Notes: generated by a model not told the origin, from the letters alone. A stretch of 35,856 nt of DNA from Acidobacteriota bacterium (GCA_020200025.1 JAIVJN010000050.1:1-35856), one strand, 5' to 3'; shown: positions 541-27,230, counted from the first letter of the stretch. A program made the numbers and translations.

Positions 541-730
541 GAGTGCAGAGTTCAACGAACAGGTGCGATGTCCAGGTGCGACAGGTGCGTTAGGTACTCA
601 GGTACTTGGGTGCGGGTGCGGGGCGCGCACACCTAAGTACCTAAGTACCTGACGCACCTCTACCCCGCCTGCCGTCTGCCCCCTGCCGTGTGCGTGTGCC
701 GTATGCCGCCTGCCGCCGTCTGCCGTACGT
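541..730. repeat. Composite intergenic element: a GAGTGCAG module, a GGTRC-word imperfect palindrome around a GCGCGC core, and a CTGCCG-word array
   Basis: The arm at 560-622 is the imperfect inverse of 629-662. The 16-mer at 575-590 is the exact reverse complement of 23510-23525 and 27198-27213. The 14-mer at 541-554 is the exact reverse complement of 24511-24524. Confidence 0.85.
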
Positions 731-747
731 CCACGAGCCCTTAGCGT

Positions 748-753
748 TATGAT
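748..753 (+). promoter_or_regulatory. Possible -10 hexamer TATGAT directly upstream of the cobA GTG (candidate leaderless transcript)
   Basis: TATGAT lies 6 nt before GTG 760 and there is no Shine-Dalgarno sequence. A similar TATACT-6nt-GTG arrangement precedes pyrK. Sequence pattern only. Confidence 0.3.
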
Positions 754-759
754 CCGGCT

Positions 760-1710
760 GTGCCACGCGCGACCGTGTATTTGATTGGCGCCGGCCCAGG
801 AACTCCCGATCTCATCAGCGTGCGAGGACTCCGCTGTTTGCAGGCGGCGGACGTCGTCATCTACGACCACCTGGTCCACCCGCGGCTGTTGAACGAGGCG
901 TCACCACGGGCCGAGAAGATCGACGTCGGACGCGCGGCGCCCGAACGGCTCGATCAAGAGGCGATTTGCTACCTCATCAGCGAGAAGGCACGCGAGGGTC
1001 AGCTCATCGCGCGCCTCAAGTGGGGCGATCCCTTCGTCTTCGATCAGGGCGGCGTCGAAGCGCTCTTCCTGCACGAACAAGGGATCCGATTCGAAGTCGT
1101 GCCCGGTGTGCCTGCCGCAGTGGGCGCGCCGGCGTATGCCGGCATTCCCCTCACCTACCCGGGTGGTGGCGACACGGTGACCTTCGTTCGCGGCCACGAA
1201 TCGGAGGGACGACAGCCCGCGCGTGTTGACTGGCGGGCGCTGGCGTCTCTCGATGGCACGATCGTGTGCTACGCGGGACCGCGCCAGTTGCCCAAGATAC
1301 TCGATGCGCTCCTTTCGCACGGGCGTCCCGGTGACGAAACCGCCGCCATCATCGTGAACGGCACCCTCCCCTCGCAGTCGACGACGACCGGCACGCTCGC
1401 GGAGCTGGCGCGCACCGTGCGCGAACAGTGGCAAGCGTCGCCCGCCCTGCTCGTCGTGGGCGACGTGGTCGGGCTGCGCGAGCATCTCCGATGGTTCGAC
1501 GAACGGCCCCTCTTCGGCCGCCGGGTGCTCGTGACGCGCTCACGCGATCAGGCCGGAGAGACGATTGGATCGTATTCACGAGCGCCAATGGCGCCAACGC
1601 ATTCCTGGATCGGCTGCTGGCCGGCGCGCGCGATGTGCGTGCCCTCGCCGACGCCAAGCTGTGCGCGGTGGGCCCCGGCACCGGCGGCAGGCTGGCACGT
1701 CTCGGGTTGA
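760..1710 (+). CDS. cobA: Uroporphyrinogen-III C-methyltransferase (CobA/SUMT) domain fused to the start of HemD. The ORF leaves the HemD frame near 1562, so its last ~50 codons are out-of-frame read-through.
   Basis: N-terminus VYLIGAGPGTPDLISVRGLRCLQAADVVIYD, and later GDPFVFDQGGVEALFL, are typical SUMT motifs. The HemD start RRVLVTRSRDQAGE appears at ~1519-1560. Confidence 0.85.
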   Translation: MPRATVYLIGAGPGTPDLISVRGLRCLQAADVVIYDHLVHPRLLNEASPRAEKIDVGRAAPERLDQEAICYLISEKAREGQLIARLKWGDPFVFDQGGVEALFLHEQGIRFEVVPGVPAAVGAPAYAGIPLTYPGGGDTVTFVRGHESEGRQPARVDWRALASLDGTIVCYAGPRQLPKILDALLSHGRPGDETAAIIVNGTLPSQSTTTGTLAELARTVREQWQASPALLVVGDVVGLREHLRWFDERPLFGRRVLVTRSRDQAGETIGSYSRAPMAPTHSWIGCWPARAMCVPSPTPSCARWAPAPAAGWHVSG

Positions 1711-5021: not shown

Positions 5022-6326
5022 GTGCGAAGCCAGAAGCCGATCAAATCGACCAAGCTGTTCGCCCGGGCAGAGAACGTGATGCCGGGCGGCGTGAGCAGCC
5101 CGGTGCGTGCGTTCAAGGCGGTCGGCGGCACACCGAGGTTCATCGCGCGGGCGTCAGGTGCGCGGCTCACCGATGTCGACGGCAAGGCGTATATCGACTA
5201 CGTGATGTCGTGGGGTCCTTTCATCCACGGCCACGCGCCTCGCGGCCTGGCTGCGGCGTTATCGCGGCAGGCGCGGCTCGGCACCAGCTTCGGGGCTCCG
5301 ACCGCACAAGAAGTGGAGATGGCCGAGCGGGTGCGCGAGCTCGTGCCGTCGATGGCCCGCGTCCGCTTCGTCAGCTCCGGGACCGAGGCGACGATGAGCG
5401 TCGTGCGGGTGGCTCGCGCGGCAACGACGCGCGAGAAGATCATCAAGTTCGAGGGCTGCTACCACGGTCACGCCGATGCGTTCCTCGTCAAGGCCGGATC
5501 GGGCGCGCTGACACTCGGATCTCCTACGAGCCCGGGCATCCCGGCAGGAGCGGTCTCGACCACGCTCGTCGCCGCGTACAACAATCTTCCGTCAATCGAA
5601 CAGCTTTGCACCGTCCACCGCGCCGAGATTGCGGCGATCATCATCGAGCCGGTCGCTGGCAACATGGGAGTCGTCTTGCCCGAGCCCGGGTTCCTTGCCG
5701 GACTTCGTGAGCTGTGCACGCGCGAGGGCATGCTGTTGATCTTCGACGAAGTGATGACGGGGTTTCGGCTGGCGCCGGGCGGCGCCCAGCAACTCTTCGG
5801 CATCACTCCGGATCTGACCTGCCTGGGCAAGATCATCGGCGGCGGCTTGCCGGTGGCGGCGTATGGGGGGCGGGCCGATCTGATGGACCTGGTCTCCCCA
5901 AGCGGTCCCGTCTATCAGGCCGGCACGCTGTCGGGCAATCCCATGGCGATGGTGGCGGGCCTGTGGGCGCTCAAACGGCTCTCGAAGGGTTTGTATGCGA
6001 CGCTGAGCGGACTCGGCGAGCGCCTGGCACTCGGCTTGTCGGATGCGGCCCGACGTGCCGGCGTGCCTCTGCAGGTCAACGCGATCGGATCGATGATCAC
6101 CCCGTTCTTCACCGCCGCGCCGGTGCGCGACCTGACGAGCGCACTCACGGCGGACACCCGCGCGTTTGCGACGTTTTTCCAGCGGATGCTCGAAGCGGGC
6201 GTCTACGTGCCGCCGTCGCAATTCGAATCGTGGTTTATCTCGACGGCGCACACGCGGAAGGATATCGATCAGACGATCACTGCAGCGCGCGCGGCGATGG
6301 AGAAGGTGGCGGCAGCCACCGGATAA
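5022..6326 (+). CDS. hemL: Glutamate-1-semialdehyde 2,1-aminomutase
   Basis: The sequence LFARAENVMPGGVSSPVRAFKAVGG and FDEVMTGFR..GKIIGGGLP is the classic HemL/class-III aminotransferase signature. Full length, 434 aa. Confidence 0.95.
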   Translation: MRSQKPIKSTKLFARAENVMPGGVSSPVRAFKAVGGTPRFIARASGARLTDVDGKAYIDYVMSWGPFIHGHAPRGLAAALSRQARLGTSFGAPTAQEVEMAERVRELVPSMARVRFVSSGTEATMSVVRVARAATTREKIIKFEGCYHGHADAFLVKAGSGALTLGSPTSPGIPAGAVSTTLVAAYNNLPSIEQLCTVHRAEIAAIIIEPVAGNMGVVLPEPGFLAGLRELCTREGMLLIFDEVMTGFRLAPGGAQQLFGITPDLTCLGKIIGGGLPVAAYGGRADLMDLVSPSGPVYQAGTLSGNPMAMVAGLWALKRLSKGLYATLSGLGERLALGLSDAARRAGVPLQVNAIGSMITPFFTAAPVRDLTSALTADTRAFATFFQRMLEAGVYVPPSQFESWFISTAHTRKDIDQTITAARAAMEKVAAATG

Positions 6327-7254: not shown

Positions 7255-7320
7255 CTACAGCAAGATTTGGGCCTTCACAGGCCCCAGGCTACGGGCTTCA
7301 GGCTCCGGGCTTGGGGCTAC
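7255..7320. repeat. GGCT/GGCC word repeat abutting the rseP stop codon
   Basis: The run CAGGCCCCAGGCTACGGGCTTCAGGCTCCGGGCTTGGGGCTACAGGCT has words spaced 7-8 nt apart. The last word supplies the final rseP codons and stop. Related words occur at 9829-9926. Confidence 0.5.
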
Positions 7321-8630
7321 AGGCTGATGCGGGTGAGATCGTTGTAGATGACCGTGACCATCAGCATCATCAGGAGGACGAAGCCGGCCAGCAGCATCTT
7401 CTCCTTGAGGTGCACGCTGAAGTCGCGGCGTGCCACGGCCTCGAGCCCCATGATGGCGATGTGGCCGCCGTCCAGGATCGGAATGGGCAGCAGGTTCAGC
7501 AGGCCGAGATTCAGGCTGATGGTCGCCATGAGCGAGAAGAGCGCCACCCACCCGAGCTGGGCTGACTCGCCGGAAATCTGCGCGATTCCCACCGGGCCCA
7601 TGAGTTGACGCGGCGAGGCGGCACCGACGAGCAGGTCGCGCAGAGTGATGAGGATCATCGTCGCGGTCTCGATGTTGCGCGTGACGCTCAAGGAAAACGC
7701 TTCGAGCGGGCCCGGCTGGAACGAGATCGTGGGGTTGGCGATGCTGATGCCGACCATCGCACTCTCGCCCCGCTGTTCCGGTGTGACGTCGAGGGTCTGC
7801 TCGGTTCCCTCGCGCCGGATGACGAAACGTACCGGTTGTCCCGCGCGCGACGAGATCGCCTCGGAGACCTGCGAGCTGAACACCATCCGCTTGCCGTCGA
7901 TCGAGATGATGACGTCGCCGGCCTGCAGCCCGGCTCGTTCGGCGGGCTCGCCCGGGGTTACCGTTCGCACACTGGGATAGACGTCGGGCTGGACACCAAT
8001 CGTTCCCACTTCGAACCGCGTATCGGAGCGCGTCGTGAGAGTCGTGGTGGCCGGCCGCACCTTGAGGCGTTCCTCTCGTCCCGCGCGCATGATGGTGACA
8101 TCGATCTCACGATCGGGTCGCGACGAGATCGCCATGTCGAGCTGTTCCCACGTATCGATGTCGAGACTGCCAACCCGCACCACGACGTCGCCCGGTCGAA
8201 TGCCGGCCTGCTCGGCGGGGGACCCCGGCTGCACGACACCGATGGCCGCCGGCTGGTCGAGAAACGCGAGCGTCTCAGCACCCTGCATCAACACGATGGC
8301 GAGCAGGATGACGGCAAGCGCAAGGTTCATGATCGGTCCCATGACCAGAATCTGGAACCGCTGCCACTTCGTCTTCGAGAGAAACTCGTCGGGACTGCCC
8401 GTGCGCTGGTCTTCGACGGTCTCGCCGGCCATCTTGACGTAGCCGCCGAGGGGAATCGCGCTGATGCAGTATTCGGTGTCGCCGCGGCGCACCTTGAGCA
8501 GCTTGGGCCCGAAGCCGAGCGAGAACGTCAGCACCTTGACGCCGTGCCAGCGAGCCATCAGGAAATGTCCCAGCTCGTGGACGAACACGAGCACGCCGAG
8601 GACGAAGGCGAACGCGAACAAGGTCGTCAA
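7317..8630 (-). CDS. rseP: RIP zinc metalloprotease RseP (site-2 protease) with PDZ domains
   Basis: It has the HELGHF motif near the N-terminus, two PDZ-like segments and C-terminal NLLPIPILDGGH. It sits in the conserved position after dxr. TTG start. Confidence 0.93.
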   Translation of the reverse strand: MTTLFAFAFVLGVLVFVHELGHFLMARWHGVKVLTFSLGFGPKLLKVRRGDTEYCISAIPLGGYVKMAGETVEDQRTGSPDEFLSKTKWQRFQILVMGPIMNLALAVILLAIVLMQGAETLAFLDQPAAIGVVQPGSPAEQAGIRPGDVVVRVGSLDIDTWEQLDMAISSRPDREIDVTIMRAGREERLKVRPATTTLTTRSDTRFEVGTIGVQPDVYPSVRTVTPGEPAERAGLQAGDVIISIDGKRMVFSSQVSEAISSRAGQPVRFVIRREGTEQTLDVTPEQRGESAMVGISIANPTISFQPGPLEAFSLSVTRNIETATMILITLRDLLVGAASPRQLMGPVGIAQISGESAQLGWVALFSLMATISLNLGLLNLLPIPILDGGHIAIMGLEAVARRDFSVHLKEKMLLAGFVLLMMLMVTVIYNDLTRISL

Positions 8631-9816: not shown

Positions 9817-9828
9817 AGTGACTCACTC

Positions 9829-9926
9829 AGGCTTGACGGCCTGGGGACCTGGAGGCCCTGGGTCCGGAAGCCCCATTTTGCCTTTCGAAGTCCAACCCGC
9901 GAGCCTCCAAGCCGCCGAGCCTGACC
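9829..9926. repeat. GGCT/GGCC word dyad in the cdsA-dxr spacer
   Basis: The left arm is CAGGCTTGACGGCCTGGGGACCTGGAGGCCCTGGGTCCGGAAGCCCC. The right arm GAGCCTCCAAGCCGCCGAGCCTGA carries the complementary words. Confidence 0.5.
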
Positions 9927-9941
9927 GTGCGCGAGGCGTCA

Positions 9942-11053: not shown

Positions 11054-11171
11054 GCACCATGTCGGAGGAAACACCGATGGTACTGGGATTGACCGGACAC
11101 TGCAACTGCGGTCGGGCCGAGCCGCGAAGCGGCGAGGTCCACCGCGAGCGGAGCGAGCCGAGCGAGGCCCC

Positions 11172-11960: not shown

Positions 11961-11963
11961 AGT

Positions 11964-12078
11964 GAGGGAATTAGGGAGTGAGGGAATCAGGGAATGCGGG
12001 CATACTGCGTTCCCGCATCGGCCACCTGCCCATTCCTGTCACTCCGGTATTCGGCCACTCGCTCACTCCTGTCATTCC
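11964..12078. repeat. 8-nt-periodic GGGAA/GGGAG word array and its inverted complement around a 7-bp hairpin
   Basis: Five 8-nt units occupy 11964-12003 (GAGGGAAT TAGGGAGT GAGGGAAT CAGGGAAT GCGGGCAT). Six complementary units occupy 12031-12078 (CATTCCTG TCACTCCG GTATTCGG CCACTCGC TCACTCCT GTCATTCC). The central stem is ATGCGGG/CCCGCAT. Confidence 0.8.
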
Positions 12079-17670: not shown

Positions 17671-18756
17671 CTATGTGCGGAAAGCGGGGTTCGGTTGGAT
17701 CAAGACAAAACACAGAAAGCAAAAGGCAGAAGGCGGGCGGCCGGATCGGGACGCAAGCTGCCGATCCAGGGCCATCAGCGCGTCAAGAATCGTTTCGGCC
17801 GCACGCTGAAAGAACACAGGATCGATCTTCTCCGGAGCGTCGGTCGGCTTGTGATAGTCCGCATGGTCCTCGACACCGAAATACACGAACGGAATCTTGG
17901 CTTCATGAAAGGCGCCGTGGTCCGATTGGAACGTCCAATCGTCCGCGCCGGCCGTGGCCTGGTCATGGCCGAAGAGCAGCCGAACGTTCGATCGGGCAGC
18001 AACCGGCTCGAGCGCGCCTCGAAGCGACGGGTAATGACGGAGGCCCGAGACGTACAGCTCGCCCGCGTCTCCTCTCGCGACCATATCCAGGTTGACGTTG
18101 AGCGTCAATCGCTCGCGCGGGATAGGTGGCGACGACACGAAGGCTCGGGCGCCCTGCAGCCCCTGCTCCTCTGCGTCAAAGAAGACAAAGAAGGTCGTGT
18201 GCTGGAAAGGCAGACGACGGCACCGGCGGGCCAACTCGAGCACAGTCGCGACGCCGGACGCGTTGTCGTCAGCCCCCGGATAGATCTGACCGTCGCGCAC
18301 GCCAAGGTGGTCGTAATGAGCCGAGACGACGATGACAGGCAGGCTTGGGTCGGCACCGGGGCAAGTGGCGGCGATGTTCGCGCCCTCGGTCTGCTCGCCG
18401 TTTCGCGACCTGAAGCGAAACGGCAGCACATAGTCGCTACCGATTGCAGAAAGCCCCGTCTCCTCGATCGCCGAGACCAACCAGGAGCGCGCCTTGTGTC
18501 CGCCAGCCGTCCCTGTTCGTCGTCCTTCCATCTCAGGCGCGGCCAGCGCCTTCACGGTGGCCATCAACCGCTCAGCAGTGATCGCGTGGACCGCGCCCGG
18601 CGGAACGGCGTCGCGCTGCTCGGCCACGGTTTGGAGCGCCGCAAGGGTCACCGTGCCCGCCGTCACGAGCACCAGTAGACATGCGCCCAGATGCGGCACG
18701 AGCTGCACTCTCGATTTGCAGACGCCGGCTCTCAGTGGGCACGCTCCTTTTTCCAT
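17671..18756 (-). CDS. M28-family zinc aminopeptidase, secreted or membrane-anchored
   Basis: The sequence is VVSAHYDHLG..GADDNASGVATVLELAR ... FFDAEEQGLQGA ... NLDMV. Start chosen at ATG 18756 (MEKGACPL...), ahead of a hydrophobic segment. The 5' end abuts the pyrC breakpoint. Confidence 0.8.
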   Translation of the reverse strand: MEKGACPLRAGVCKSRVQLVPHLGACLLVLVTAGTVTLAALQTVAEQRDAVPPGAVHAITAERLMATVKALAAPEMEGRRTGTAGGHKARSWLVSAIEETGLSAIGSDYVLPFRFRSRNGEQTEGANIAATCPGADPSLPVIVVSAHYDHLGVRDGQIYPGADDNASGVATVLELARRCRRLPFQHTTFFVFFDAEEQGLQGARAFVSSPPIPRERLTLNVNLDMVARGDAGELYVSGLRHYPSLRGALEPVAARSNVRLLFGHDQATAGADDWTFQSDHGAFHEAKIPFVYFGVEDHADYHKPTDAPEKIDPVFFQRAAETILDALMALDRQLASRSGRPPSAFCFLCFVLIQPNPAFRT

Positions 18757-23210: not shown

Positions 23211-23224
23211 AGGGTGATTCTAGA

Positions 23225-23530
23225 CGTCACACGGCAAACGTCATACGGCATACGGCAGGCGGCAAGCGAAGGCGGCAAGCGGCATACGGCAGTCCACGGG
23301 GGACGGGGGACGCGGCATACGGGACCGGCAGGCGGCGAACGGCAGGCGGTAAGCGCGCGGCGGCGGGCGGCACGCGGCAGGGCGGCACGCGGAAGGCGAA
23401 ACCGTCCGGTGGGCGGGTGTTTCGGTGCGATCGGCGCGCGGGGAGCCCCTCATTACGCAAGCACCTGTCGCACTCGTCGCACCATCGCACCCAAGTACCT
23501 GAGGACCCCACGCACCTGTCGCACCTGACT
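23225..23530. repeat. Approximately 300-nt intergenic element: a long CGGCA-word array followed by a GGTRC module (C-rich strand)
   Basis: More than 15 CGGCA words at 7-9 nt spacing span 23229-23400 (e.g. CATACGGCATACGGCAGGCGGCAAGCG). A GCGCGC core lies at ~23435. GCACCTGTCGCAC words span 23461-23528 and include the shared 16-mer at 23510-23525. Confidence 0.8.
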
Positions 23531-23539
23531 CCGGTCGCC

Positions 23540-23545
23540 TATACT
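23540..23545 (+). promoter_or_regulatory. Possible -10 hexamer TATACT immediately upstream of the pyrK GTG (candidate leaderless start)
   Basis: TATACT lies 6 nt before GTG 23552, the same geometry as upstream of cobA. Pattern only. Confidence 0.25.
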
Positions 23546-23551
23546 TTTCTG

Positions 23552-24367
23552 GTGTCCTTGGTCGACCTGGCTGCCCTCGTGCTCGCGAGCCGACGTTTGT
23601 CGACCGACTACAACGTACTGACGCTAGCGGCGCCGCAGATTGCCGAGGCGACACACGCGGGTCAGTTCGTGATGGTCAAGCCGGCCAAGACCGCTGACCC
23701 TCTGCTCCGGCGCCCTTTTTCCGTCTTCGAAGTTGTCCGCGACGCAGAGGGTCGGGCAACGGCCATCAGCATCCTCAACAAACGCGCCGGACGCACGACC
23801 GGTCAGTTGTTCGACGCGGCGGAGGGCGATCGGATTCACTGCCTCGGGCCACTCGGCAAGCCGTTCACGGTAGTGTCGCCGCCCATGCAGGCATGGATGG
23901 TGGCAGGTGGCGTCGGCCTGGCGCCGTTCGCCACGTTGGCCGAATCTCTCTTCCGCGTGCAGACACCAGCGACGCTCTTTTACGGAGCGCGAAGTGCCGC
24001 CGAGCTCTTCTATCTCGATTTCTTCGAGCGGCTGGGCGTTCGACTGGTGCTCGCAACCGAAGACGGCAGCCGCGGTGTGCGCGGGCGTGTCGACGTTCCA
24101 CTGGCAAGCGCTCTGGCCGATCTCTCCGGTCCCGTGCAAGCCATGGTGTACGCCTGCGGGCCCGAGCCGATGCTCGCCGCGGTCGCGACGCTGGCCGCGC
24201 GGTTCGACCAACCTTCCGAGGTGTCCGTGGAACGCGTCATGGGGTGCGGCATGGGCGGCTGCTACAGTTGCGTTCTCCCCGTGCGCCATGGCGATGAGCA
24301 CGCCAACCTGGTGCGCTCGTGCATCAGCGGCCCGGTGTTCGACGGCGCGGAAGTGGTGTGGGAGTGA
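23552..24367 (+). CDS. pyrK: Dihydroorotate dehydrogenase (class 1B) electron-transfer subunit PyrK
   Basis: It has FAD/NAD-binding ferredoxin-reductase-like motifs (GQFVMVKP, RRPFSV, MVAGGVGLAPF). The C-terminal 2Fe-2S cysteines are MGCGMGGCYSC. Start set at GTG 23552 because the upstream part of the ORF is repeat DNA. Confidence 0.85.
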   Translation: MSLVDLAALVLASRRLSTDYNVLTLAAPQIAEATHAGQFVMVKPAKTADPLLRRPFSVFEVVRDAEGRATAISILNKRAGRTTGQLFDAAEGDRIHCLGPLGKPFTVVSPPMQAWMVAGGVGLAPFATLAESLFRVQTPATLFYGARSAAELFYLDFFERLGVRLVLATEDGSRGVRGRVDVPLASALADLSGPVQAMVYACGPEPMLAAVATLAARFDQPSEVSVERVMGCGMGGCYSCVLPVRHGDEHANLVRSCISGPVFDGAEVVWE

Positions 24368-24534
24368 CACGGCACACGGTCAACGGCAGACGCAGACGGC
24401 AAGCGGCAAGCGGCAAGCGGCAAGCGGCCGACGGTAGGCGACGGGCGACGAAGCAACTCCGAACTCTAAACTGAACTCTTCACTTTGCACTCTGCACTTT
24501 GCACTCACTCTGAACTCTGCACTCTGCACTCGGT
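24368..24534. repeat. Word-repeat element filling the pyrK-pyrD spacer: a CGGCA module including (GGCAAGC)x4, then a CTGCACT module
   Basis: 24398-24425 is four exact GGCAAGC heptamers. 24457-24532 carries CTGCACTC/TTGCACTC words. 24511-24524 is the exact reverse complement of 541-554. Confidence 0.85.
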
Positions 24535-26458: not shown

Positions 26459-26914
26459 TCAGGGGTCGAGTACGTAGTGGCGCGGCGTCGGCCTTCGGGT
26501 CGCGTCGGCGGACGCGCCATCGCCTTTCGCGCAGGCTTCGTCGCAGTGCCCCTCCACGCTGATTCGCGTCGAGCTCCACCGCTTGAGCCAGTCAGCGTTC
26601 TTCTGCAACAACGGTCGAGCATCGGCGCGAAGCGTCGACTCGTCGAGGTCGAAGAAGGCGTCGCCCAAGGGGCGCTCGGCATTCAACTGCTCGAGCGTCT
26701 TCTGCGCAAAGAGCTGCTCTTCGGTCGGCGCCGGCGCAGGCGCGGGCGTCGGGGGAGGTGGTGGAGGCGGTGGCGGTGGCGGCGCCGGCGCCGCGGCTGG
26801 TGGTGGCGGTGGTGGCGGCGCAACCGCTGGCGCCTTCTTCGCGCATGCGGCAGCCCCGAGGCTCAACACAAGGCACAGCGACAGGGCCCCTGCCGTCTTT
26901 CCAAGCACACTCAT
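26459..26914 (-). CDS. Pal/OmpA-family lipoprotein with a Pro-rich linker. The OmpA-like domain is incomplete after GHCDE.
   Basis: It has a lipoprotein signal (LSLGAAAC) and a ~35-residue Pro/Ala linker. The sequence then reads FFDLDESTLRADARPLL.KNADWLKRW...RISVEGHCDE. The expected RGT.EYN.ALG.RRA peptidoglycan-binding segment is absent. Confidence 0.75.
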   Translation of the reverse strand: MSVLGKTAGALSLCLVLSLGAAACAKKAPAVAPPPPPPPAAAPAPPPPPPPPPPPTPAPAPAPTEEQLFAQKTLEQLNAERPLGDAFFDLDESTLRADARPLLQKNADWLKRWSSTRISVEGHCDEACAKGDGASADATRRPTPRHYVLDP

Positions 26915-27030: not shown

Positions 27031-27230
27031 AACAGGTGCGTGACAGGTGCAACGGATGCGACAGGTACTTCGGTGACAGGTGCGACCGGTGGTCAGGTAC
27101 TTAGGTGCTTGTGCGACGGGTGCGACAGGTACGTCGGTGCCTGGGCGACGGGTCCGGGGCTGGGTGCGGCGCGCGCACCTAAGTACCTAAGCACCTAACG
27201 CACCTGTCGCACCCGTTCAACGCACCTGTG
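27031..27230. repeat. Second copy of the GGTRC-word imperfect palindrome with a GCGCGC core
   Basis: The G-rich arm at 27031-27168 carries GGTGCGACA, GGTACTTA and similar words. The core is GGCGCGCGC. The inverted arm spans 27174-27228. 27162-27205 aligns to 614-659 with 3 substitutions and one 2-nt indel. The right end overlaps the last codons and stop of the 27217..29547 gene. Confidence 0.85.

Follow-up and report, generated by a model that had tools for sequence, protein, structure and literature searches.

The spacer between a conserved cupin-like gene and cobA-hemD in an Acidobacteriota genome (GCA_020200025.1) carries, at positions 541-730, a composite palindromic repeat denoted here element B. 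The window that we analyzed is the whole contig (35,856 bp, GC content 66%), in which nearly all long spacers are tandem arrays of short words (elements A-H, Table 1). A first-pass annotation had likened 541-730 to repetitive extragenic palindromes (REPs), bacterial interspersed mosaic elements (BIMEs) or MITEs (miniature inverted-repeat transposable elements). The repeat architecture of this stretch was confirmed and the proposed likeness was supported in part, and yet the stretch is better described as long simple sequence repeat (SSR) arrays of 7-9-nt units together with one copied module of ~60 nt (M1). We favor a joint reading, to which we give an even chance: lineage-specific, slippage-driven repeat DNA is combined with a copied module, and the hairpin in element B probably acts as a transcript boundary before a leaderless cobA promoter. 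The source was assigned to the order Vicinamibacterales by the NCBI name of the PyrB protein in a sister assembly (99% identical); relatives at 85-92% PyrB identity are named alike.

Re-reading of the sequence bore out the previously proposed layout of a GAGTGCAGAGTTCA block, a GGTRC arm, a GCGCGC core, an inverted arm and a CTGCCG array. The GGTRC words (seven, starting at 562, 575, 584, 593, 601, 609 and 615) are those described earlier, although their supposed placement every 8-9 nt is only approximate, the spacings being 13, 9, 9, 8, 8 and 6 nt. GYACC words start at 637, 645 and 654. They are followed by seven TGCCG/TGCCC words (670, 677, 684, 697, 704, 711 and 721), mostly with a period of 7. 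The tract 660-735 is C-rich and G-poor (35 C and 21 G in 76 nt). Within the CTGCCG array, GCCGTCTGCC is present at 670-685 and 716-726. It resembles the Neisseria DNA uptake sequence (DUS) GCCGTCTGAA, and arrays of another locus (L105) contain AAGTGCGGT, the core of the Haemophilus uptake signal sequence (USS); we presume that both resemblances are coincidental.

Parts of element B recur elsewhere in the window. The 16-mer at 575-590 was found as its exact reverse complement at 23510 and 27198, and the 14-mer at 541-554 recurs at 24511, as had been claimed. With up to two mismatches allowed, the 16-mer has five matches and the 14-mer six, compared with 0.09 and 0.12 in dinucleotide shuffles; the observed counts were reached in none of 100 shuffles, so the recurrence is not what composition alone would produce. 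The reported match between 614-659 and 27162-27205 also holds: when checked on 600-672 and 27148-27222 (mean column identity 82%), it includes one 2-nt gap and is nearly continuous over the core and the right arm. As to the module order, said to be conserved, M1 or GGTRC words precede CTGCCG words at 1-100 and 541-730 as well as in 23225-23530 when read as its reverse complement, three loci in all. However, the statement that element B, reverse-complemented, equals 23225-23530 plus the tail of 24368-24534 is too strong, because true homology is confined to ~50 nt (23479-23528), the remainder being alike at the level of words. Element B is no assembly artefact, since an independent assembly (GCA_046262045.1) carries 541-759 without a single base difference. 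Loci L001, L247 and L248 of this sister assembly are 99.3-99.8% identical to the window, and the analysis covers ~41 kb of the source species. A decayed coding sequence, CRISPR, a tRNA-related element and a riboswitch were all considered and ruled out.

Module M1 (ACAGGTGCGwTGnnCrGGTGCGACAGGTGCGwTAGGTrCTnAGGTACTTrGGTGCG) is represented by four copies that are ~90% identical and score 68, 68, 68 and 48 bits in nhmmer. Full-length copies occur solely in the window and the sister assembly; at the other loci examined, the M1 profile reaches at most 28 bits, and only its generic GGTGCGACA part is matched. Because the irregular stretches shared by the copies cannot arise by independent slippage, M1 has evidently been dispersed by copying, to at least four loci. 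All copies are intergenic, and three of the four start 0-25 nt past a same-strand stop codon. In element B, M1 and a partial inverted M1 copy make up a hairpin with 37-nt arms, for which the folding energy (575-668) is -63 kcal/mol. The minimum free energy of the element as RNA corresponds to z = -3.2 and -3.6, one value per strand. Registers displaced by one unit (8 nt) pair as well, because the arms are 8-nt tandem arrays. The repeat copies have no single structure in common, elements B and E pairing different segments. Compared with shuffled sequences, the spacers of B, E, A, H and of a syntenic relative (L242) are strongly structured (z -2.6 to -9; E -5.5). A hairpin as the shared feature of all elements was nevertheless ruled out; it is not the common denominator because elements C and D are less structured than shuffles.

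The spacer words fall into three families, each present also as its complement: GGTGC/GGTAC (family 1), CGGCAnG (family 2) and AGTGCAG/AGTTCAG (family 3). Head-to-tail units with periods of 7, 8, 9, 14 and 16 were detected by TRF across all elements. The words are nearly restricted to spacers, with enrichment p values from about 1e-13 to 1e-4. GGTRC, for example, occurs 24 times in the spacer elements against 3.8 expected (p = 3e-13), and TGMACT seven times against 0.5 (p = 1e-7).

Table 1. Coordinates of repeat features in the window (in locus L001 of the sister assembly where indicated)
Feature	Position	Strand	Remarks
Element B: family-3 G-form words GAGTGCA GAGTTCA, GAGTGCAGAGTTCA	541-554	+	Starts 1 nt past cupin stop; words match reverse complement of CTGCACT array 24472-24531
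Element B: module M1, G-arm of family-1 words (GGTGC/GGTAC)	558-620	+	M1 copy; nhmmer 68 bits
Element B: long imperfect hairpin/cruciform	583-659	none	Arms 583-619 / 623-659, 84% complementary
Element B: GCGCGC core	623-628		
Element B: C-arm, inverted partial M1 copy (GTACC/GCACC, family-1 C-form)	629-662	+	Reverse-strand M1 match 659-623, 30 bits
Element B: family-2 C-form heptamer array (CTGCCGn, ~8 units)	665-729	+	TRF period 7/14
-10-like box TATGAT, 5 nt, GTG start of cobA-hemD	749-762	+	Placement would fit a leaderless transcript
M1 copy, element A	L001 913-976		Just upstream of window position 1
M1 copy, element E	27229-27168	-	Overlaps stop codon
M1 copy, element C	23528-23479	-	
Element A, hemC-cupin spacer cut by contig start	1-100	+	(GGTGCTCAGGTACTTA)x4, then GTGCCG words, then GAGTGCAG
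Element C, between divergent phosphodiesterase and pyrK promoters	23225-23530	+	Family-2 G-form array (CGGCAnG) 23225-23400, then family-1 C-form words including minus-strand M1
Element D, within pyrK-pyrD junction	24368-24534	+	(CGGCAAG)n G-form, then (CTGCACT)n C-form
Element E, past stop of TMEM260-like gene	27035-27229	-	Long inverted family-1 arm 27035-27170; strong hairpin
Element F, PRT-truA spacer	11961-12071	-	GGAGTGA/GGGAATn words, then complements; half-spacer GC skew +0.48 then -0.43
Element G	9817-9941	none	G-rich words, then C-rich (CCGAGCC/CCAAGCC)
Element H	7277-7325	+	CAGGCTn heptamer array

Arrays of the window differ from those of the sister assembly by whole units or by blocks of words. 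Element A differs by one 16-nt unit, and element D by four heptamers (the sister has seven CGGCAAG units versus four here, plus one CGGCGGG). In element E the difference is one octamer and a 57-nt word block, and in element H it is 168 nt of CAGGCYn words, by which the array of the sister exceeds that of the window. No change was seen in elements B and C. At a larger distance, orthologous spacers of two syntenic relatives (L249 and L250, PyrB 87-88% identical) are short and array-free. The pyrK-pyrD spacer, 167-195 nt in the source species, is 2 nt in L249, and the two genes overlap in L250; the divergent promoter spacer measures 67 and 39 nt, respectively, versus 342 nt, and the TMEM260-OmpA spacer 96 and 70 nt versus 302-348 nt. 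It follows that the arrays have expanded recently and in a lineage-specific manner, and that they are not conserved regulatory sequence. Between genera, the orthologous, syntenic cupin-cobA spacer of L242 (cupin 81% identical) has a like architecture composed of other words, (GTGCTGC)n, a GC-rich centre and (CAGCACn)n, and folds with z = -9; further L242 spacers consist of (GGGGCGGGT)n followed by (CCCCACCTG)n. Cupin homologs at 72-74% identity (L244-L246) were rejected as orthologous loci, being paralogs in other gene contexts.

Related arrays are widespread. Many other metagenome-assembled genomes (MAGs) of Vicinamibacteria and Acidobacteriota contain GGTGCGnnn arrays, frequently in the form of G-arm/C-arm palindromes. 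A contig scan with the 15-mer GGTGCGACAGGTGCG gave at least 120 matches, mostly due to chance, and 13 informative Acidobacteriota/Vicinamibacteria loci among the matches listed. A 31-nt species-specific pattern had no match in JGI metagenomes. A looser 23-nt pattern hit at least 120 loci, many of them coding, and this set was used cautiously; moreover, the GC3-based gene caller extends open reading frames (ORFs) across stop-free 9-mers. We observed that GGTGCGACAGGTGCG also matches collagen-like Gly-Ala-Thr repeats of low-GC, phage-like contigs (L133, L134, L137, L142 and L143, among other metagenome loci of low GC), so that false positives would enter any k-mer census of the family. In other Acidobacteria, GCACCnGTC or GGTGCGnnn 9-mers, which are stop-free in all six frames, are coding (L033 925-1040, L126, L132/L140 and L081) and give rise to low-complexity (APV)n or (GAx)n linkers. 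These directly follow signal or lipoprotein peptides and also include an E2 lipoyl linker. Locus L033, like L109, comes from the complete Vicinamibacteria chromosome OY970174.1. Short-read contigs of relatives (the end of L243 and two JGI contigs of P0004) end 26-96 nt past the cupin stop, position 1 of the window lies within an array, and L249 has an N-gap inside an array (17950-18050). Since arrays break assemblies in this way, their copy number is suggested to be high.

The words also follow a polarity rule. On the top strand, every G-rich form precedes every C-rich form in elements B, C, D and E, and element A has one trailing exception. The rule is strand-symmetric and can therefore be restated relative to genes: on both strands and for any gene orientation, the sense strand is rich in G immediately after a stop codon and rich in C immediately ahead of a start or promoter. 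Skew of the two spacer halves is G-first at 16 related acidobacterial loci and C-first at one, whereas control high-GC loci fetched in the same way are divided 18 to 19 (Fisher p = 0.002). The deposited gene calls yield 12 G-first and one C-first spacers, and adjacent TRF array pairs 22 and four (binomial p = 5e-4). In the cautiously used set of environmental contigs, many members of which are coding, G-form arrays begin 4-22 nt past same-strand stops. This polarity, the near-universality of arrays in long spacers and the published polarity of Xanthomonas and Nostoc repeats (PMC4692102) had all been missed by the first-pass annotation. One candidate origin of the polarity is selection at gene boundaries, by which G-first hairpins would never show a C-rich arm to Rho and 5' regions would be kept G-poor; another candidate is that the mechanism generating the arrays extends 3' ends by G-rich units.

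How might such DNA have arisen, and what could it do at element B? According to our joint reading, arrays would grow and shrink by replication slippage, modules would spread by copying (gene conversion or transposition of some kind), and the repeats would take up the whole of each spacer except what stops and promoters require. The arrays extend right up to -35 positions. The cupin gene (148-540, stop codon 538-540) and cobA-hemD (start at 760) lie in an operon-like cluster, hemC-cupin-cobA/hemD-hemB, and two heme-pathway genes flank the spacer. The G-arm starts 1-20 nt past the cupin stop, and the C-rich array ends ~20 nt before TATGAT, itself 5 nt from the cobA GTG. Because of this placement, a transcript from the cupin side is predicted to fold into the -63 kcal/mol hairpin, without a U-tract, and to continue into a C-rich, G-poor tract. 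The hairpin would most likely end or stabilize the upstream transcript and insulate the leaderless cobA-hemD promoter, a REP/BIME-like role performed by a non-REP structure; in other words, it probably marks a transcript boundary. We hold this functional part with low confidence, because arrays are missing from relatives and because certain elements lack structure or are probably not transcribed.

The putative promoter is one of several. TATGAT at 5 nt from the cobA GTG is conserved as GTATGATCC in L242, TATACT precedes the pyrK GTG by 6 nt, TAGAAT stands before the phosphodiesterase gene, and the layout is alike in L249 and L250. Altogether, -10-like hexamers (TATGAT, TATACT, TAGAAT and TACAAT) 5-6 nt before starts that lack a Shine-Dalgarno sequence were noted at 749-762, 23540-23555 and 23217-23244 of the window, at 7528-7594 of L249 and at 7420-7458 of L250. 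Boxes so close to start codons suggest that leaderless mRNAs may be common in this Vicinamibacterales group. The cupin gene, unlike these genes, has a strong GGAGGA Shine-Dalgarno sequence. Consensus scans of element B for sigma-70 promoters and terminators returned nothing convincing, and 541-730 contains no terminator-like sequence of the intrinsic type, the hairpin being followed by CTCTACCCCGCC.

Several points weigh against the joint reading. Slippage alone leaves the G-first/C-last rule unexplained, and element B itself is without strain variation. The role in termination or stabilization is deduced from sequence, and the hairpin is not followed by a U-tract. Elements C and D have z values of +2.4 to +2.6 (D +2.4), and element C may escape transcription altogether, as it lies upstream of both divergent promoters. 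That close relatives are without the arrays speaks against a conserved function and would equally fit neutral or selfish DNA. Finally, the genome-wide copy number is extrapolated from the ~41 kb covered.

A non-autonomous mobile element of the REPIN or MITE kind would account for four ~90% identical M1 copies at unrelated loci, three of them just past stops. A transposase (RAYT/Y1 or other) encoded elsewhere in the genome would recognize M1 and the inverted M1 copy as ends, and the arrays would be subterminal binding sites. The inverted arrangement of copies, the lineage-specific load with empty orthologous sites in relatives and the disruption of relatives' short-read contigs, including the N-gap in L249, are in line with this. 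We consider it unlikely nonetheless. The housekeeping genes of the window include no transposase; the copies have no GTAG/CGTC tag, shared termini or target-site duplications; and a single module is common to them while the flanking arrays differ. The G-first rule spans unrelated families and species-specific words, which is beyond the reach of one transposase, and REPs have not been reported in Acidobacteria (PMC3733652).

Alternatively, the repeats could be a selected, genome-wide RNA punctuation, in which G-first hairpins and C-rich tails would signal transcript ends or Rho loading in both directions or would offer arrays of multivalent sites to an RNA-binding protein or the ribosome. AGGUG words are Shine-Dalgarno-like and CACCU words anti-Shine-Dalgarno-like, the polarity is set by gene ends irrespective of gene orientation, arrays abut stop codons and promoter -35 regions, and the structure of the B, E and L242 spacers is strong (z -3 to -9). 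Xanthomonas analogs are reported to be transcribed (PMC4692102), and MacGregor proposed a post-transcriptional role for TAACTGA heptamers (PMC4679880). This explanation, too, seems rather improbable to us: the same junctions are array-free in close relatives, including the overlapping pyrK/pyrD; words vary among species and unit numbers among strains; element C lies upstream of promoters and element D is unstructured; and the likeness to Shine-Dalgarno sequences is limited to one word family.

It is quite improbable that the arrays are double-stranded binding sites for an abundant protein (a nucleoid-associated protein, an uptake-sequence receptor or a recombination hotspot factor), with inverted arms setting the direction. 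Conserved pentamer cores (GGTGC) do alternate with variable spacers, and this core is present in many Vicinamibacteria MAGs. Polar mirror motifs also recall DUS/USS inverted pairs and octamers of the Chi/KOPS type, comparisons that serve as leads only. On the other hand, periods of 7-9 nt would place successive sites on different faces of the helix, the word families are several and unrelated, the words hardly occur outside spacers, which sets them apart from uptake sequences and Chi, and no candidate protein is known.

Very doubtful is the idea that the polarity is a footprint of DNA synthesis, in which units are added to the 3' ends at both sides of a break in the spacer and the ends are then joined head to head, as in fused telomeres, giving (G-words)n(C-words)m. 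The units would be made by slippage synthesis or, on a short template, by a telomerase- or reverse-transcriptase-like enzyme. If this were true, the spacers of the clade would be scars of healed breaks written in a small vocabulary, and differing word families across one spacer, as in element D, would record independent additions.

An artefact, that is, an assembly error or a decayed coding sequence (an Ala-Pro linker or collagen-like repeats), is hardly credible: the window contig does have many internal deletions relative to the sister assembly and GGTGCGACA 9-mers are coding elsewhere (collagen-like G-A-T repeats and (APV)n linkers), but the assembly error is already refuted for element B by the independent assembly, a coding origin is excluded by the 7- and 8-nt periods and by stops in every reading frame, and gene callers put no gene in the spacer.

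The deletions just mentioned are extensive. With reference to the sister loci, the window lacks 113 nt (at 1560/1561), 134 nt (~6458), 168 nt (~7325), 90 nt (9671/9672), 473 nt (~10530), 239 nt (~11125), 270 nt (~18772), 232 nt (~26540) and 283 nt (33816/33817). Several of them hit essential genes, which are frameshifted or fused as a result (hemD, dxr, cdsA/uppS, the M28 peptidase/pyrC junction and an OmpA-like gene). The contig is thus either misassembled or a degenerate variant, and for this reason its gene calls should be treated with caution. Three further observations concern repeats outside the elements described above. The truA-uppS spacer of the sister assembly (L247, reverse complement, 5700-5960) contains a large palindrome, a perfect 31-nt inverted repeat (GGGCCTCGCCGCTTCGCGGCTCGGTGGGCGG) around ~200 nt, of which the window (~11117-11130) keeps the right arm alone. 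A (CGG)n-like repeat with periods of 3 and 42 within the OmpA-like gene (26726-26834) is probably a Gly/Ala-rich linker. In the sister hemC frame (L001 38-75), CACGGCA-type heptamer words (CGCGGCACACGACACACGGCACACGGCACACGGG) encode a loop, RGTRHTAHGTR, that immediately precedes the conserved (G)LFVKELE motif; now and then, word arrays may enter coding sequence three units, or a multiple of three, at a time.

As a rule, bacterial genomes contain few short tandem repeats (PMC12699852), and the small number of repeat-rich lineages are unexplained. Vicinamibacterales, a widespread and largely uncultured soil group, represents an extreme case here: a small set of 7-9-nt words makes up most long spacers, with strict mirror polarity tied to gene ends, visible strain turnover and clean empty sites in relatives. 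The combination of mirror polarity over several word families with empty orthologous sites is what makes the system interesting to follow up, as it renders the purpose and polarity of intergenic heptamer repeats approachable by comparative genomics and transcriptomes. In practical terms, the arrays disrupt short-read assembly and gene calling in these MAGs, and strains could be marked by the number of array units.

We compared the repeats with known systems. In agreement with the earlier view that no described family is recognizable, Rfam had no match at the gathering score; a spurious sub-threshold match to mir-3622 (580-662, 40 bits versus a gathering score of 78) is a chance hairpin likeness. 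Plasmid BLAST with the element found no match, and none of the papers searched describes such repeats in Vicinamibacteria or Acidobacteria. Like REPs, REPINs and BIMEs (PMC3733652, PMC2817692, PMC3116915), for which roles in termination and mRNA stabilization have been proposed, the repeats, which are modular, are extragenic, palindromic and dispersed, lie often just past genes and form mosaics of alternating orientation. A REP, however, is an imperfect palindrome of 20-40 bp with a 5-13-bp stem, a GTAG/CGTC tag and a RAYT association (PMC3733652). Here the arms are 37 nt of tandem words, the composite is ~190 nt, the copies are not colinear, the flanks of the four M1 copies have no GTAG/CGTC tag in common, and no RAYT or other transposase is encoded among the window genes. 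REPs number tens to hundreds of near-identical copies per genome; the copy count of M1 is four in ~41 kb, and contig breaks at arrays in relatives hint at a high number. As for MITEs, we found neither terminal inverted repeats with defined ends, nor target-site duplications, nor colinear full-length copies; only M1 is common, flanked by arrays of differing family and length. The BOX elements (boxA-boxB(n)-boxC) known from Streptococcus pneumoniae are likewise modular and intergenic; the number of their internal tandem modules varies, and their complementary ends pair into a stem-loop. Their modules are 45-59 bp rather than 7-9 nt, they have no sequence relation to the repeats described here and they lack G/C polarity.

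Tandem repeats are closer. The arrays consist of head-to-tail 5-11-nt units longer than expected by chance, and unit numbers are polymorphic between 99.3-99.8% identical assemblies, both of which are hallmarks of long SSRs and of STRR-type repeats. Long SSRs with units of 5-11 nt, as surveyed by Mrazek in 2007 and summarized in PMC4679880, are dominated by heptamers, phylogenetically sporadic and attributed to polymerase slippage, and those with unit lengths that are not a multiple of three are confined to non-coding DNA. In that summary, no Acidobacteria are among the ten repeat-richest genomes, and neither mirror polarity nor a mosaic architecture is mentioned. TAACTGA heptamers of Beggiatoaceae, Cyanobacteria and Bacteroidetes, for which a post-transcriptional role was proposed (MacGregor 2015, PMC4679880), also form short intergenic arrays by start codons; a canonical ribosome-binding site is lacking in the vicinity, and no function is known. 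They differ in being a single AT-rich word that occurs almost solely as direct repeats, upstream of starts only and without an inverted C-form partner.

The closest published analog comes from Xanthomonas and Nostoc/Anabaena, in which G-rich heptamers (GGGAATC and GGGGAYT, respectively) are repeated in intergenic DNA. We take the latter to be the STRR1 repeat. As described by Rehm et al. in 2015 (PMC4692102), they are ~90% intergenic, mostly reported as transcribed, rare between divergent genes and in some cases arranged in inverted pairs. Their G-rich strand is near the 5' ORF, on the coding strand past stops and on the non-coding strand before starts; the position is conserved, length and sequence vary among close species, and no function is known (PMC4692102). 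The repeats studied here share the tandem 7-nt units, the mainly intergenic location, the G-rich strand next to the 5' neighboring ORF in any gene orientation, the rarity between divergent genes, the variation in length and sequence at conserved positions among close relatives and some inverted pairs. Even the words coincide in element F, where GGGAATT/GGGAGTGA/GGGAATC occur at 11961-12000 and include the exact Xanthomonas heptamer. This element, unlike B, could form G-quadruplexes, judging by the four or more G3 tracts in its words. Most words here cannot: those of families 1-3 have no GGG tracts, and element F alone has G3 tracts. Other differences are the several word families per genome, the mixed 7-, 8- and 9-nt periods, the pairing of each G-array with a C-form array across the spacer, the copied 60-nt module, the different phylum and the far heavier load, which takes in most long spacers. 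The system thus resembles known bacterial repeats and stands outside the catalogued families: it is a known but unexplained kind of bacterial repeat DNA, in which the variant features found here are new.

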